Both the position numbers and the translations under genes were made by a program. Shown piece by piece: positions 15,341 to 24,589 of a DNA stretch of 64,000 nucleotides (its first letter is position 1; every line of letters begins with the position of its first letter). The notes beneath the pieces were generated by a model. The model was not told the DNA's origin. It was given only the letters and a program-made list of their open reading frames with translations, and searched no databases. This DNA is from Dictyostelium discoideum (Eukaryota), in the NCBI GenBank assembly GCA_000004695.1, contig CM000153.2:1920001-1984000 (forward strand). The letters run 5' to 3'.

Positions 15341-15985
15341 ACTCCTATTATTTATATAAATAAAATAATCAATTATAATTATAATTAATATATTATTAAT
15401 ATTTTCTTTGAATGGATACTAAATATCAAATGAGTATACAAACATATTAGGAATTGAAAATCCTGTCATTTGAGTTTTTTATTTTTTATATATATATATA
15501 TACAAAATGTTATATTAACAAATTATAATTAATTTAACATCCAAATTTGTAGTTTATTAAAAAAAAAAAAAAAAAAAAATTAAAAAAAAAAAAAAAAAAA
15601 AAAAAAATGAAAAAAAAGGATTTAATTTGTTCTAAAAATTCAAAAATTAAAAAAATTTAAATTAAAATAAATAAAATTTCAAATTACTTGAAAATTTAAT
15701 AAACACCTCAGTGCATGTAACCCTAACTTTCTGTTTCTGGCGAATTGTTTAATTGATTTCTATTAAATATTTATTTTAATATGAAATCAAAAAATGATTT
15801 TTTTAATTTTTTTTTTAAATATTTCATTGTTGTTTATTTTTTTTTTTTTTATTTTACAAAAAAAAAAAATTGAGTAAAACCTTTCATCAAAAATTAATAT
15901 ATAAATAAATTAATATTCATTTAATTTAAAAAATCTAAATCCATTTTTTTTTTTTTTTTTTTTTTTTAATCTGTCCACAACTCAT

Positions 15986-18051
15986 TTATTTTTTTGGAAT
16001 CAAAATTGGATGAGCTTCAGTATTGAAAATATATTTATCTAATGGAATAACTGACGAAGGTTGGAATGATAAATAAAGATATTTTAAAGTTTCTGACATA
16101 AAGAAACTTTCTTGAGTATCATCCAAAGATTTTCTATCATCAACATTTTTAAGACCATTATAACCATTTTCATGTCTACAAACATCTTCAATTGCTTTAA
16201 AGATTTTCCATGACCATTCTTGATATTTAGTATTACCTAAAAAAAAAAAAAAAAAGGTATTAGTACTACTACAACTACAACCACTACCACTACAACTACA
16301 ACAACTACTACTACTACTACTACTACTACAACCACTACCACTACAACTACAACCACTACCACTACAACTACAACAACTTCTACTATTACTACTACTACTA
16401 CCTTACTACTACTTCTACTAAAATTATAATTAATTAAACATACCTGTTAAACGATATAAAATGAATAATGATTCAACAGTTTCAGGACGTAAAATATAAC
16501 AACTTAAAGTACCAGGACCATTCCAACTAATATTACCAGAATTTGGATCGACACGGAATGATTCGGGAGCTAAACCAGATGGTGAAGTTAAATAAGTTTT
16601 TACGCAAGTTTTAGTTATCATTTCACCAACTTCCATATACTTAGCAGACTTTTTATCATCTTGAGTAATATTTGCAGCGGCAGCTAATGCAAACATGCCG
16701 CCAGCGAAACAAGCTAAATGTTCTTGAATGTTGGTTAGAGAGTTATGATCCATGGCTGAAAGGTAACCATCACCTTTTGGGGAAACTTTGTACAAATGTT
16801 CAATGATAGAATCGGCAGATTCAACAAATAGACGTCTATAGATTTCGTCTTCACCATTTGTATAAATCCACATCTTTAAGAGATATTCATAATAGGAATC
16901 ACCTAAACCACCAATTGTAATAAAACTACCACAGAAACCATTTGCGTCTTGATTTACAAAAACTGGTAATAGACCTGGAATTTTTGGTTTCAATTTGGAT
17001 AGAGCATCAATCACTCTATCAGAGTATTCCTTATACTTTGGATCACCTGATATTCTTGAAAGTTCATTAAATTCTAAAAATAATGTAGATACTGCTGATA
17101 AAATTACACAACCACTTGGATATGACTTTCCATGAGTTGCTAATCTAATTTGTGATGCTGGGAATGGATTTTTAGTGTCTTCTGGGAATGCATATAATAA
17201 TAAATCACCAATCTCTACTGCTTTCTCTAAATACATTTCATCATTTGTTAATCCATACATTGTTACATGTGATCCTAAAACTCTAATAATCGTTTCAAAT
17301 ACTGAAACTGCCATTCCCTTTTTTTTTTTAAAAAAAATAAAAATAAATTAAAATAAAATAAAAATTAATAAACATAAACCTTGAAACCATAAATATATAT
17401 CTATTATAAACATACAGTATTTTTAGATTGTTTTAATTCATTGGCAACCCAATCTCTACCTTCTTTATATTCTTTATCTAAATTCATAATTTTAAGAGTA
17501 TCTAAAGAATCAATAATTGTTAGACCAAGACCAAACCATTCTTTATGACTTTTTGTTAATGGTCTTAATTCATCTCGACCCCATGCAAATTCTCTATATT
17601 TTTCCCAGGCATGTTTCATTGCTCCTCTAACTTGTTCTGATCTTTTAATATTTAATTTTTCATTTTGATAATATACTTCATCAATTTTATTATATGGATT
17701 TTCTGTTTTCTTATAATCATAATTATTATTATTATTATTATTATTATTATTATTATTATTATTATTATTATTATTGTTATTATTATTATTATTATTATTA
17801 TTATTATTATTATTATTATTATTATTATTATTATTATTATTATTATTATTATTATTATTATTATTATTATTATTATTATTATTGGTATTATTATTATTGG
17901 TATTAACTTTTTTTTGATTTACATTTTTCCATTTATCAGGAATTCTATGAGCATCGATTTTATTTGTTCCTTCAAAACTTAAAATAGTAGATATACCAAT
18001 AAGGAAAGCTACAATTACAATTGCAAGAAACAGTTTGATTTTTGTGTTCAT
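15986..18051 (-). CDS. Class I alpha-1,2-mannosidase (glycoside hydrolase family 47), type II membrane protein. Tandem copy 1. Exons: 18051..17416, 17317..16444, 16236..15986.
   Basis: N-terminal signal-anchor ([24 protein letters not shown]), then an Asn tract of roughly 75-80 residues encoded by (AAT)n. GH47 blocks: [33 protein letters not shown]; [12 protein letters not shown]; [14 protein letters not shown]; [18 protein letters not shown]; [11 protein letters not shown]. Donors GTATGT at 17415 and 16443. Acceptors AG at 17319-18 and 16238-37. Phases checked (0; 1+2). This copy has a 3-codon deletion relative to copies 2 and 3 (PSGCV versus PGWTGGCV). Confidence 0.8.
16257..16420. repeat. 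Copy-specific (CTA/CAA)n trinucleotide microsatellite inside the last intron of GH47 copy 1.
   Basis: ctactacaactacaaccactaccactacaactacaacaactactactactactac... occupies most of the copy-1 intron. The homologous introns of copies 2 and 3 are about 70 nt and lack this repeat. Confidence 0.85.
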
Positions 18052-22016: not shown

Positions 22017-23832
22017 TTATTTCTTTGGAATCAAAATTGGATGAGCTTCAGTATTGAAAATATATTTATCTAATGGAATAACTGACGAAGGTTGGAATGA
22101 TAAATAAAGATATTTTAAAGTTTCCGCCATAAAGAAACTTTCTTGAGTATCATCCAAAGATTTTCTATCATCAACATTTTTAAGACCATTATAACCATTT
22201 TCATGTCTACAAACATCTTCAATTGCTTCAAAGATTTTCCATGACCATTCTTGATATTTAATATCCCCTAAAAAAAAAAAAAAAAAAAAAAAAAAAAAAA
22301 AAAAAAAAAAAAAAAAAAAAAATTAATATACCACTAATTTACTATTATTACTAAAATTATAATTAATTAAACATACCTGTTAAACGATATAAAATGAATA
22401 ATGATTCAACAGTTTCAGGACGTAAAATATAAAAACTATATGTACCATGAACATTCCAACTAATATTACCAGAATTTGGATCGACACGGAATGATTCGGG
22501 AGCTAAACCAGATGGTGAAGTTAAATAAGTTTTTACGCAAGTTTTAGTTATCATTTCACCAACTTCCATATACTTAGCAGACTTTTTATCATCTTGAGTA
22601 ATATTTGCAGCGGCAGCTAATGCAAACATGCCGCCAGCGAAACAAGCTAAATGTTCTTGAATGTTGGTTAGAGAGTTATGATCCATGGCTGAAAGGTAAC
22701 CATCACCTTTTGGGGAAACTTTGTACAAATGTTCAATGATAGAATCAGCAGATTCAACAAATAGACGTCTATAGATTTCGTCTTCACCATTTGTATAAAT
22801 CCACATCTTTAAGAGATATTCATAATAGGAATCACCTAAACCACCAATTGTAATAAAACTACCACAGAAACCATTTGCGTCTTGATTTACAAAAACTGGA
22901 AATAGACCTGGTATGCTTGTTTTCATTTTGGATAGAGCATCAATCACTCTATCAGAGTATTCCTTATACTTTGGATCACCTGATATTCTTGAAAGTTCAT
23001 TAAATTCTAAAAATAATGTAGATACTTCTGATAAAATTACACAACCGCCAGTCCAACCTGGATATGACTTTCCATGAGTTGCTAATCTAATATTTGATGA
23101 TGGGAATGGTTTTTTAGTGTCTTCTGGGAATGCATATAATAATAAATCACCAATCTCTACTGCTTTCTCTAAATACATTTCATCATTTGTTAATCCATAC
23201 ATTGTTACATGTGATCCTAAAACTCTAATAATCGTTTCAAATACTGAAACCGTCATTCCCTTTTTTTTTTAAAAAAAAAAAAAATAAATTAAAATAAAAT
23301 AAAAATTAAAAAACATAAACAATAAAACCATATATATATATCTATTACATACAGTATTTTTAGATTGTTTTAATACATTAGCAACCCAATCTCTACCTTC
23401 TTTATATTCTTTATCTAAATTCATAATTTTAAGAGTATCTAAAGAATCAATAATTGTTAGACCAAGACCAAACCATTCTTTATGACTTTTTGTTAATGGT
23501 CTTAATTCATCTTGACCCCATGAAAATTCTTTATATTTTTCCCATGCATGTTTCATTGCTCCTCTAACTTGTTCTGATCTTTTAATATTTAATTTTTCAT
23601 TTTGATAATATACTTCATCAATTTTATTAAATGGATTTCCTGTTTTCTTATAATTTTTATTATTATTATTATTATAATTATTATTATTATTATTTTGAAT
23701 TACAATTTTCCATTTATCAGGAAATCTTTGGGCATCGATTTTATTTCTTCCATCAAAACTCAAAATAGTAAATATACTAATAAGGTAAGCTACAATTGCA
23801 ATTGCAAGGAACAGTTTGATTTTTGGGTTCAT
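22017..23832 (-). CDS. GH47 alpha-1,2-mannosidase, tandem copy 3 (intact). Exons: 23832..23353, 23259..22377, 22267..22017.
   Basis: The exon structure and splice sites match copy 1 (donor GTATGT after ...QSKNT; acceptor AG then GGA-ATG; final acceptor ...TTTAG|GGGATATT). Exon 3 is full-length (…[39 protein letters not shown]). The Asn tract is short. Confidence 0.75.
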
Positions 23833-24589
23833 TCTTTTTTTTTTAAGGGTAATAAAAATAAAAATGTAATTATTGTGTTAAAATAAAAATAAAAATAAAA
23901 AATTTTAAGCAAAAAGTAAAAGGGATTGTCTACAACGAAAATTTATTTAACTTTCATAAATTATTGATTTTTTTTGAAACCTCGAAAAAAACGTGGCTTA
24001 AACTGAAATCACCACGTGGGCTTAAAATATATTTTTCTTTCAAATAAAAAATGTAAATTTGGGTATTTGATGATTTTTAACTCCCTCCCATTTTCATCAA
24101 CTTCCCTTTATTCATAATTCTGTTAATACATCTTTATTACTTGTAATTAACAAACCAATTGATCTTAATATTTCCTGTAACTATATTTTTCATTTTTGAT
24201 TGGTTCTAAATGTGAAAATTTTTGATTGGTCCAAAATGTGAATATTTTTTTTAATATTTTTTTTTGAAAAAAAAAATCGATGTTAAAATAGTTATTTATT
24301 ACCTCTAGTTTAAATATTTGGTTATTGATCCCTTGAGAAAACTAATGTCTCTGAAATTTCTTTCTCTCCATCCGTAAACTCATTTTCGATCTCATTAATT
24401 TTTCATTAAAAAAAGTTTAATTTTTGATCTTTGTTAAATGTTGTTGTCTTTATTAAAATAAAATGGATTACAGTTTTAAATAATGCTCAAAAAAAAATAT
24501 TATCTTTAAAAAAAAATAATAATATCTGTTGCAATATATTTGTGTAAACACAATTATTGTAAGATATTTGTTTTAGGGAAATTTTTTTT

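Follow-up and report, generated by a model that had tools for sequence, protein, structure and literature searches.

A head-to-tail array of three GH47 genes was found on chromosome 4 of Dictyostelium discoideum AX4, at 15792-24148 of the window (the whole stretch of 64,000 nucleotides that was analysed), with one three-exon gene on the minus strand in each unit of about 3 kb. The explanation that fits the data best, with a probability of roughly 85%, is a tandem triplication of a predicted type II membrane GH47 gene in the AX4-type lineage, which was followed by gene conversion among the copies and by decay. The repeats, the spliced gene models and a second assembly agree on the three-copy array that had been predicted from the letters of the window, and the presence of at least two head-to-tail paralogous units is confirmed beyond one assembly.

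Structure of the array

The window has three direct-repeat units (n = 3) with a start-to-start spacing of 2.9-3.07 kb and an identity of 86-97%, and the approximate limits by self-BLAST were 24148-21832 for copy 3, 21360-18857 for copy 2 and 18624-15792 for copy 1. The original prediction had put the array at 15850-24100; it does lie there, with slightly wider limits. As had been proposed, a class I alpha-mannosidase gene of three exons lies on the minus strand of each unit, and all introns of the three spliced models run from GT to AG. The coding sequence of the catalytic domain is 97-98% identical among the copies (d = 0.019-0.027), and no further GH47 fragments beyond these three copies were found within the 64-kb window.

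All units and junctions were annotated on the minus strand. Unit 3 (21832-24148) adjoins a BEACH-domain gene and consists of a promoter block, gene c3 and about 190 bp of 3' flank; its upstream part corresponds to the promoter of the single-copy locus L005 (7241-7445), and it aligned with unit 2 (24051-21847 against 21094-18857) at 89% identity over 2285 nt. Unit 2 (18857-21360), delimited by self-BLAST and by mapping on L005, contains junction filler, promoter block, gene c2 and 3' flank, with 21194-20860 corresponding to L005 7134-7453 and 19056-18850 to L005 9465-9652. Unit 1 (15792-18624), delimited by self-BLAST, contains filler, promoter blocks, gene c1 and the ancestral 3' flank and adjoins a filactin-like gene; the sequence downstream of it (15985-15265) matches L005 9465-10201 at 91% identity.

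The filler between units 3 and 2 (21195-21811) does not occur in the single-copy loci and includes a perfect 27-nt direct repeat at 21349-21401. The filler between units 2 and 1 (18272-18850), placed by self-BLAST and single-copy locus mapping, has 18447-18379 in common with 21307-21243, and 18624-18528 in common with 24148-24050. BLAST against the whole window and all compared loci gave no source for the junction fillers or for a 775-bp insertion. The AX4-specific upstream insertion was scanned for tRNAs, for Rfam families and for Pfam domains in its ORFs, and all scans were empty; a transposon, a tRNA-targeted element or an ncRNA as cause of the duplication or source of the filler is therefore unsupported.

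Related genomes and history of the copies

The original prediction had called for a comparison with the orthologous locus. The syntenic site was single-copy in 8/8 related genomes examined (D. discoideum ACTFIR and ACTFIW, two D. cf. discoideum, two D. citrinum, D. dimigraforme and D. firmibasis), with the gene flanked by the same BEACH-domain and Ist1/filamin/actin genes in all eight, and the triplication is specific to the AX4-type lineage. In two of these genomes, ACTFIY and ACTFIZ, the single copy is a pseudogene, and the inactivation was independent in these two sister lineages, one by inversion and one by deletion. The species complex thus includes one lineage with the triplication, two with an intact single gene, one with an inversion and one with a deletion at this locus.

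Region-wise neighbour-joining (NJ) trees with bootstrap along the gene gave four different groupings at 72-100% support: (c3, ACTFIR, ACTFIW) at nt 1-138 (100%), (c2, c3) at nt 190-480 (76%) and again at nt 1281-1614 (83%), (c1, c2) at nt 481-850 (72%), and (c1, c3) at nt 851-1280 (96%, d = 0.002). The tree of the whole catalytic domain joined c1, c2 and c3 with 99%. Shared-derived sites backed all three copy pairings, which are mutually incompatible. This change of the copy trees along the gene indicates that the copies have exchanged sequence by gene conversion. At nt 1-138, a 5-codon deletion is common to c3, ACTFIR and ACTFIW, and the shared-derived substitutions of these three in the 46 codons of this anchor/stem region are 8 nonsynonymous and 0 synonymous; the ancestral state was kept in c1, c2, ACTFIY and D. 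citrinum. By this distribution, the 5' end of c1 and c2 goes back to before the split from ACTFIR/ACTFIW, and so does the first duplication, or the haplotypes joined by it. How old the duplication is has been obscured by gene conversion; the dS among copies was 0.035, that between copies and ACTFIR was 0.046-0.067, and that of the neighbouring gene between AX4 and ACTFIR/W was 0.060-0.064.

The original prediction had described a recent segmental amplification. The tandem copies and the single-copy state elsewhere agree with this, but as a full account it is too simple, given the conflicting region-wise trees and the older 5' end. In its strict form, with one gene triplicated after the split and the copies changed afterwards only by independent mutation, it would agree with the monophyly of the copies over the whole catalytic domain, with their distances to each other (0.019-0.027) being smaller than to ACTFIR (0.039), with a dS among copies below that of the strain split (0.06), and with the single copy in every other genome. 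However, incompatible shared-derived sites for all three pairings are impossible by independent mutation, the topologies are region-specific with good bootstrap values, and nt 1-138 of c3 is derived together with ACTFIR/ACTFIW and ancestral in c1, c2, ACTFIY and D. citrinum, so we regard this account as unlikely.

In the preferred history of triplication, conversion and decay, unequal or non-allelic recombination would have produced a first head-to-tail duplication of a segment of about 2.5 kb, made up of the three-exon gene with approximately 320 bp of its promoter and approximately 200 bp of 3' flank. The duplicated unit plus junction filler would then have been duplicated again. Conversion among the copies would have kept the catalytic domain nearly uniform and left the older divergence in the 5' end, and the differences in stalk and intron length would come from simple-repeat slippage.

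Enzyme family and fates of the three copies

Gene c3 (exons 23832-23353, 23259-22377 and 22267-22017, minus strand) is intact, as had been predicted: its spliced model is open and its 537-aa protein is identical to AX4 XP_638605.1 (Q54PP9). The protein matched Pfam PF01532 (Glyco_hydro_47) with 513 bits (E = 1e-153) over profile positions 1-453 of 455, and among solved structures it matched mouse Golgi ManIA (E = 4e-100) and human ER ManI (E = 5e-95). In this full-length PF01532 match, it resembles mammalian Golgi mannosidase IA (PDB 1NXC) and human ER mannosidase I (MAN1B1; 1FO2, 1X9D), and it is predicted to have their layout of N-terminal hydrophobic anchor, stalk and catalytic domain. The N-terminus, read from the sequence by eye, has 5 residues, then about 20 hydrophobic residues, then the Asn stalk. 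The stalk differs from that of the mammalian enzymes in being an Asn homopolymer, and such homopolymers are typical of Dictyostelium. The family-typical GGLLSAY motif is replaced by GSHVTMY in the whole Dictyostelium clade of these genes. Human residue equivalence was counted on chain 1fo2, and by this count c3 conserves FETxIR (E330, R334), GDSYYEY (D463), LRPET (E599), ETLKY (E663) and FNTEAHP (T688); all its catalytic landmarks and Ca2+-binding residues are in place. The genes are predicted to be type II membrane GH47 (class I) alpha-1,2-mannosidases, and c3 is the probable working gene.

None of the three copies lacks the equivalents of the catalytic carboxylates E330 (here in FETIIR), D463 and E599, which do not vary among the homologs (119/119). 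The Ca2+-site residue T688 and E663, which in the human enzyme belongs to the Ca2+ network (PMC8260486), are present in c1 and c3 and missing in c2.

Gene c2 (545 codons; exons 20857-20354, 20261-19379 and 19307-19057, minus strand) is an unprocessed pseudogene. One G-to-T change has turned the GAA (Glu) codon at the E663 equivalent into TAA (19164-19162, minus strand), which is the nonsense codon that had been predicted for copy 2. The codon is GAA in c1, c3 and all outgroups, and the residue is Glu in 119/119 homologs. The TAA, at codon 511, is the first in-frame stop and eliminates the last 34 residues, including the Ca2+-binding Thr of FNTEAHP. The introns are kept and the TAA is identical in two assemblies, so that this is a disabling change in an intron-containing duplicate with sequencing error excluded. 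The AX4 annotation of c2 stops at the TAA (XP_638604.1, Q54PQ0), its 510 aa being the length of c2 up to the stop, and this protein falls in the same 90% cluster as XP_638605.1. In the 526-aa model of the newer assembly (KAM9942947.1), 20 codons including the invariant ETLKY are spliced out and the stop is avoided in this way; this model is an artefact.

Gene c1 (exons 18051-17416, 17317-16444 and 16236-15986, minus strand) has an open 586-aa frame with lesions at the active site; a 586-aa gene was also called at this position in the second assembly, and the exact protein was absent from the protein collection searched. Alignments showed the predicted 3-codon deletion as a loss of 9 nt (Gly-Trp-Thr; 17111-17119, minus strand, junction at about 17117/17116) together with a Gly-to-Ser change, in a region where 109/119 homologs have Trp and 105/119 have Gly. 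Near it, a GCA (Ala) codon (17093-17095, minus strand) stands where all relatives have GAA (Glu), at the equivalent of human ER ManI E397, a position that is acidic in 116/119 homologs. In protein terms, c1 lacks W229 and carries G231S and E238A, and the conserved E397 equivalent with its preceding Trp loop is intact in c2 and c3 and defective in c1 only. Compared with ManIA and MAN1B1, c1 is therefore without the E397 equivalent and the conserved Trp, and c2 ends at the E663 equivalent. The E397K variant of MAN1B1 had no measurable activity (PMC8260486), and c1 is probably catalytically dead or severely impaired. The loss of function foreseen for one copy holds for c2 with its stop and understated the decay, given the changes in c1.

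Each of the private changes first listed was found, and the copies are diverging; the direction of these changes was partly misread. The (AAT)n tract of the c1 poly-Asn stalk (17711-17898, minus strand) has 62.7 units by TRF, against 20 in c2 (20653-20712) and 15.7 in c3 (23648-23694), which matches the roughly fourfold difference that had been noticed. But the Asn stalks of single-copy orthologs have roughly 35-55 residues, and we therefore rejected a fourfold expansion private to c1: its stalk is a moderate expansion, and those of c2 and c3 are contractions. The G/L/L/E residues of c1 are common to single-copy orthologs as well. Judged by the orthologs, the long stalk and several "private" residues of c1 are close to ancestral, and the short stalks and several substitutions of c2 and c3 are derived, so the polarity assumed for the novelties of copy 1 is partly reversed. 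The microsatellite reported in the last intron of copy 1 was located by TRF as an imperfect trinucleotide repeat of 51.7 units (16264-16420, minus strand); through it, intron 2 of c1 reaches 207 nt, compared with 71 nt for that of c2 and 109 nt for that of c3.

Functional diversification was also considered, in which all open copies are maintained and c1, on a longer stalk, either binds mannose like a lectin without catalysis or acts as an enzyme with a changed specificity. The open 586-codon frame, intact splice sites and promoter-proximal block of c1 would suit it, as would the core catalytic triad E330/D463/E599, E663 and T688 that c1 retains. However, what c1 has lost lies at strongly conserved positions and shows no pattern of compensation, its N:S (7:3) is compatible with neutral change, the divergence of the copies (dS 0.035) would be low enough for an open frame to survive by chance, and sister lineages drop the GH47 gene outright. 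We therefore consider such diversification improbable.

Selection, second assembly and significance

Within the complex, the dN/dS was 0.41-0.76, whereas deeper comparisons gave 0.10-0.26 and the neighbouring gene had 0.06, and these values are to be read knowing that short-timescale dN/dS is generally inflated and that the 0.46 of ACTFIR against ACTFIW comes from only 14 changes. A Fisher test of N:S 34:12 against 130:118 gave p = 0.009. Purifying selection on this mannosidase paralog is weak or relaxed across the D. discoideum complex, as the pseudogenes of ACTFIY and ACTFIZ also indicate, probably because the genome has other GH47 paralogs. The private N:S counts (7:3 for c1, 4:1 for c2, 5:4 for c3) are too small to reveal differences in selection between copies; the idea of a stronger purifying selection on c3 than on the other two copies was dropped for this reason, and the argument on the fate of the copies therefore rests on which residues were hit. 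It is very doubtful that the locus is a hotspot of adaptive copy-number and sequence turnover, with c1 kept as a lectin-like pseudoenzyme on a long poly-Asn stalk and the anchor/stem changes of c3, ACTFIR and ACTFIW reflecting selection on localisation; if it were, strains would differ in N-glycan trimming or glycoprotein quality control.

Units of 3 kb with at least 95% identity are difficult to assemble, and homopolymers abound in this very AT-rich region, which would favour an assembly artefact with truly one or two copies and differences from sequencing errors or mis-joined alleles, but the independent chromosome-level D. discoideum assembly GCA_054883475.1 rules this out and makes it extremely improbable. 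Its separately assembled chromosome (5,576,411 bp, against 5,450,249 bp for AX4 chromosome 4) shows all three copies with each lesion unchanged, as GH47 genes of 537, 526 and 586 aa in the order of AX4. Both assemblies agree in every copy-discriminating substitution and likewise in the stop codon, the 9-nt deletion and the microsatellite, and over about 10 kb only homopolymer and microsatellite lengths and 3 SNPs differ. Mis-joined alleles would not be expected in a haploid organism such as D. discoideum. The flanks of this assembly are 100% identical to AX4, which means that the structure is confirmed in one strain type and not in a second natural isolate.

Both c2 and c3 are already annotated in AX4, XP_638605.1 and XP_638604.1 being named "glycoside hydrolase family 47 protein", with c2 entered as a 510-aa protein and not as a pseudogene. 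Our literature search yielded no publication that deals with these genes or this array, with GH47 arrays of Dictyostelium or with the new Dictyostelium assemblies. The array resembles birth-and-death tandem arrays with gene conversion, such as those of globins and opsins, in its head-to-tail units, lineage-variable copy number, mosaic phylogenetic signal, nonsense pseudogene and changes in simple-repeat length. It does not differ from them in kind; its own features are a small unit (2.5 kb plus filler) and a single-copy ortholog that two sister lineages inactivated independently, one by inversion and the other by deletion. The locus is an ordinary case of genes arising and decaying, in a genome that had been annotated before, and what is known of how such arrays or GH47 enzymes work is unchanged by it. 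In practice, XP_638604 (Q54PQ0) merits a pseudogene flag, the c1 product is not to be taken as an active mannosidase, and knockout or glycomics work on Dictyostelium GH47 enzymes requires copy-specific reagents. The locus is a compact and well-resolved example of birth and death within one species complex.

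The three-copy GH47 array and its recurrence in a second assembly

The GH47 array is real, an ordinary case of tandem duplication accompanied by gene conversion and pseudogenisation. When window 13000-27000 was analysed for direct repeats, every long segment was present in three copies that were 86-97% identical and whose starts lay 2.9-3.07 kb apart. Self-BLAST placed the repeat units on the minus strand at ~24148-21832 (unit 3), ~21360-18857 (unit 2) and ~18624-15792 (unit 1), and each contained a three-exon class I alpha-1,2-mannosidase gene, also on the minus strand, whose introns were canonical (GT..AG) and identically placed in every copy. 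The exons of copy 1 (c1) were 18051-17416, 17317-16444 and 16236-15986 (586 aa), those of copy 2 (c2) were 20857-20354, 20261-19379 and 19307-19057 (545 codons, with TAA at codon 511), and those of copy 3 (c3) were 23832-23353, 23259-22377 and 22267-22017 (537 aa). The c3 protein covered the full Pfam Glyco_hydro_47 profile (513 bits) and, among solved structures, matched mouse Golgi mannosidase IA (E = 4e-100) and human ER mannosidase I (E = 5e-95), and the 64-kb window contained no GH47 fragments beyond c1-c3. The original prediction had described the array accurately, and all the private features it listed were found: the 9-nt deletion in c1, the longer poly-Asn stalk of c1 ((AAT)n of 62.7 units, with 20 in c2 and 15.7 in c3), the microsatellite in the last intron of c1 (intron 2, 16264-16420) and the nonsense codon in c2 (19164-19162).

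The AX4 sequence was compared with a D. discoideum assembly made separately at chromosome scale, GCA_054883475.1 (CM142510.1, 5,576,411 bp). The latter contained GH47 genes of 537, 526 and 586 aa with order and neighbours unchanged, and across window 15000-25056 the only differences were three SNPs and the lengths of homopolymers or microsatellites. The c2 stop, the c1 deletion, the Glu-to-Ala change of c1 and its intron microsatellite were identical. An assembly artefact was therefore rejected, because three copies with their lesions recurred in a separately made assembly. The flanks were 100% identical to AX4 as well, and GCA_054883475.1 is the same strain type re-assembled, not a second natural isolate. 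The three SNPs (22266, 22003 and 21960), the only ones across about 10 kb, clustered at the 3′ end of c3, in a stretch of 310 bp, and at each of them the base in GCA_054883475.1 was that of c1 or c2; the cluster reflects either errors in one assembly or a short tract of gene conversion in which stocks differ.

The genes were already publicly annotated, since XP_638605.1 / Q54PP9 (D. discoideum AX4, on a record of 5,450,249 bp; "glycoside hydrolase family 47 protein") had exactly the c3 protein sequence and c2 up to its stop corresponded to XP_638604.1 / Q54PQ0 (510 aa). The downstream neighbour was XP_638602.1 / Q54PQ2, with Ist1, filamin and actin domains. Our literature search found no papers discussing these genes. 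In the newer assembly, the c2 model (KAM9942947.1, P0001; 10001-11801 of the GCA_054883475.1 locus, L001) was 526 aa long and avoided the stop by treating 20 codons as a short "intron"; since the invariant ETLKY motif would be lost with them, the model was regarded as a gene-prediction artefact, one that masks a pseudogene.

Single-copy loci in relatives and the duplicated segment

The interval comprising the BEACH-domain gene, GH47 and the filactin-like gene was fetched from eight other genomes, and 8/8 contained one GH47 gene or relic at the syntenic site. The gene was intact in D. dimigraforme (L002, 583 aa), D. firmibasis (L003, 624 aa), two D. citrinum genomes (L007, 572 aa; L008, 582 aa) and the D. 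discoideum genomes ACTFIR (L005, 561 aa) and ACTFIW (L006, 559 aa). The tree of the neighbouring gene was (((AX4,(ACTFIR,ACTFIW)),ACTFIY),ACTFIZ), followed by D. citrinum, D. dimigraforme and D. firmibasis, and therefore the triplication is limited to the AX4-type lineage among the available genomes. In the same neighbouring gene (window 12445-14814), AX4 differed from ACTFIR and ACTFIW by d = 0.015-0.017 and dS = 0.060-0.064. A dS of about 0.06 seems high between strains of one species, which suggests that these records apply the label "D. discoideum" to several diverged lineages.

The remaining two genomes, both D. cf. discoideum, had lost the gene in different ways. In ACTFIY (GCA_054859205.1, L004), exon 1 was inverted from about codon 17 to just beyond the donor site (9286-9837), the first 16 codons were absent and two 1-bp deletions shifted the frame, and exons 2 and 3 were still open (9920-10804 and 10964-11215); this looks like a young pseudogene, and a local misassembly is less likely. 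In ACTFIZ (GCA_054859235.1, L009), a deletion relic, the gene was reduced to pieces of exons 2 and 3 (8453-9575) that correspond to c3 residues 187-411 and 451-504 and include a change of frame, and the BEACH-to-filactin interval was 1.8 kb, compared with 3.9 kb in ACTFIR, so this is a second, independent loss.

Mapping of the AX4 spacers onto the ACTFIR locus (L005), which is single-copy, placed the 3′ flank of each unit at 9465 to ~9660 and gave the upstream blocks of c2 and c1 a common start at 7134, and therefore the ancestral duplicated segment was about 2.5 kb. In it, the gene would have been preceded by ~320 bp of promoter and followed by ~200 bp of 3′ flank. At each junction there was about 0.6 kb of filler (21811-21195 and 18850-18272) that was missing from the single-copy loci. 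The two fillers had a 93%-identical segment in common (21307-21243 and 18447-18379), as expected if the second duplication copied a junction-containing unit. No source of the filler was detectable in the window or the other loci, and it contained no tRNA, Rfam or Pfam features. An unusually G-rich patch of the filler between c3 and c2 carried two copies of a 27-nt perfect direct repeat, GAAAAAAAAGGGGAAAACGTTAAGGTG (minus strand), at 21349-21401. Farther upstream, between the BEACH gene and c3, a 775-bp stretch (25076-25850) was absent from 8/8 other genomes and matched nothing else in the window; its G+C of ~0.29-0.32 was coding-like for Dictyostelium, its short ORFs on both strands had no Pfam match, and a multi-exon gene of 118 aa is annotated across the area in the newer assembly. 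A 125-bp segment upstream of c3 was doubled in AX4 (26066-26188 and 24725-24847, 81% identity) and occurred once in the ACTFIR locus (L005 6292-6462).

Mosaic history of the copies

Our analysis led to four corrections of the original interpretation, concerning how and when the array arose, the polarity of the c1 features, the damage to c1 and a wider relaxation of constraint. When D. dimigraforme and D. firmibasis served as outgroups, every pairing was supported by shared-derived sites (nine for c2 + c3, seven for c1 + c3 and four for c1 + c2). Region-wise neighbour-joining with closer outgroups (c3 CDS numbering) grouped c3 with ACTFIR and ACTFIW over nt 1-138, with c1 and c2 outside (bootstrap 100%; d(c1,c3) = 0.109), c2 with c3 (76%) and c1 with ACTFIR and ACTFIW (78%) over nt 190-480, c1 with c2 over nt 481-850 (72%), c1 with c3 over nt 851-1280 (96%; d = 0.002) and c2 with c3 over nt 1281-1614 (83%), and the whole catalytic domain grouped all three copies (99%). 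The first 46 codons (window 23695-23832 in c3), which would represent the cytoplasmic tail, the membrane anchor and the stem, had eight derived substitutions common to c3, ACTFIR and ACTFIW, all nonsynonymous and with no shared-derived synonymous change, together with a common five-codon deletion (KKVNT); c1, c2, ACTFIY and D. citrinum kept the ancestral state.

A simple recent amplification was thus not borne out, as the region-wise trees conflict and the 5′ end of c3 groups with ACTFIR and ACTFIW. In the simplest reading, c3-type and c1/c2-type genes would have parted before AX4 split from ACTFIR/ACTFIW, and gene conversion would afterwards have homogenised most of the catalytic domain. Given such an early separation, either ACTFIR and ACTFIW lost the extra copies or unequal crossing-over of two long-lived haplotypes built the AX4 array. 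The dS among copies was 0.035 in all three pairs, about half the AX4-ACTFIR divergence, and it dates the last homogenisation, not the origin of the array.

The outgroups also changed the polarity of the differences that had been called private to c1. The Gly-Trp-Thr deletion was indeed c1-specific and derived, as were G231S, E238A, H431P, D456N and E468K (c3 numbering), but the G and L of WNGxGTL, the L of PGLLPVF, the E of ANELKQ and the long Asn-rich stalk were ancestral (single-copy orthologs had roughly 35-55 Asn), and it was c2 and c3 that had common derived states and contracted stalks.

Relaxed constraint and predicted function

Nei-Gojobori analysis of 468 catalytic-domain codons gave dN/dS of 0.41-0.67 among the three copies, 0.44-0.76 between the copies and ACTFIR/W and 0.46 between ACTFIR and ACTFIW. 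The value was 0.10 for the two D. citrinum genomes, 0.17-0.26 in deeper comparisons and 0.06 for the filactin-like neighbour between AX4 and ACTFIR/W. The array had a nonsynonymous excess over the D. dimigraforme-D. firmibasis pair (N:S 34:12 vs 130:118, Fisher p = 0.009); private N:S counts (c1 7:3, c2 4:1, c3 5:4, ACTFIR 4:2, ACTFIW 6:2) were too small to distinguish copies statistically. Together with the two independent pseudogenes, these ratios point to a paralog that is weakly constrained across the whole D. discoideum complex. A plausible cause is redundancy, since these genomes have further GH47 paralogs (54-61% identity).

Residues were numbered by human ER mannosidase I chain 1fo2 (chain index + 239), and conservation was taken from 119 homologs. 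E330 (FETIIR), D463 (GDSYYEY) and E599 (LRPET), each invariant (119/119), were intact in c1, c2 and c3. The c2 stop fell on the Glu of ETLKY, equivalent to the likewise invariant E663, and removed the FNTEAHP motif including T688; in human MAN1B1, E663 helps to bind Ca2+, and the variant E663K is pathogenic (PMC8260486). Loss of function had been proposed for one copy, and c2 would fit this, but c1 was damaged too: it had Ala at the E397 position (acidic in 116/119 homologs), lacked a Trp eight residues upstream (present in 109/119) and had Ser instead of the Gly that follows this Trp (105/119). Human MAN1B1 E397K had no measurable enzyme activity (PMC8260486). The private changes of c3 were at variable positions, except the conservative A104S. 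Judged from these sequences, c3 would be functional, c2 a pseudogene and c1 an open frame probably encoding an inactive or crippled enzyme. The practical value of these results is that the annotation is to be corrected, and they are a warning to experimenters that the active mannosidase is likely encoded by only one of the three genes.
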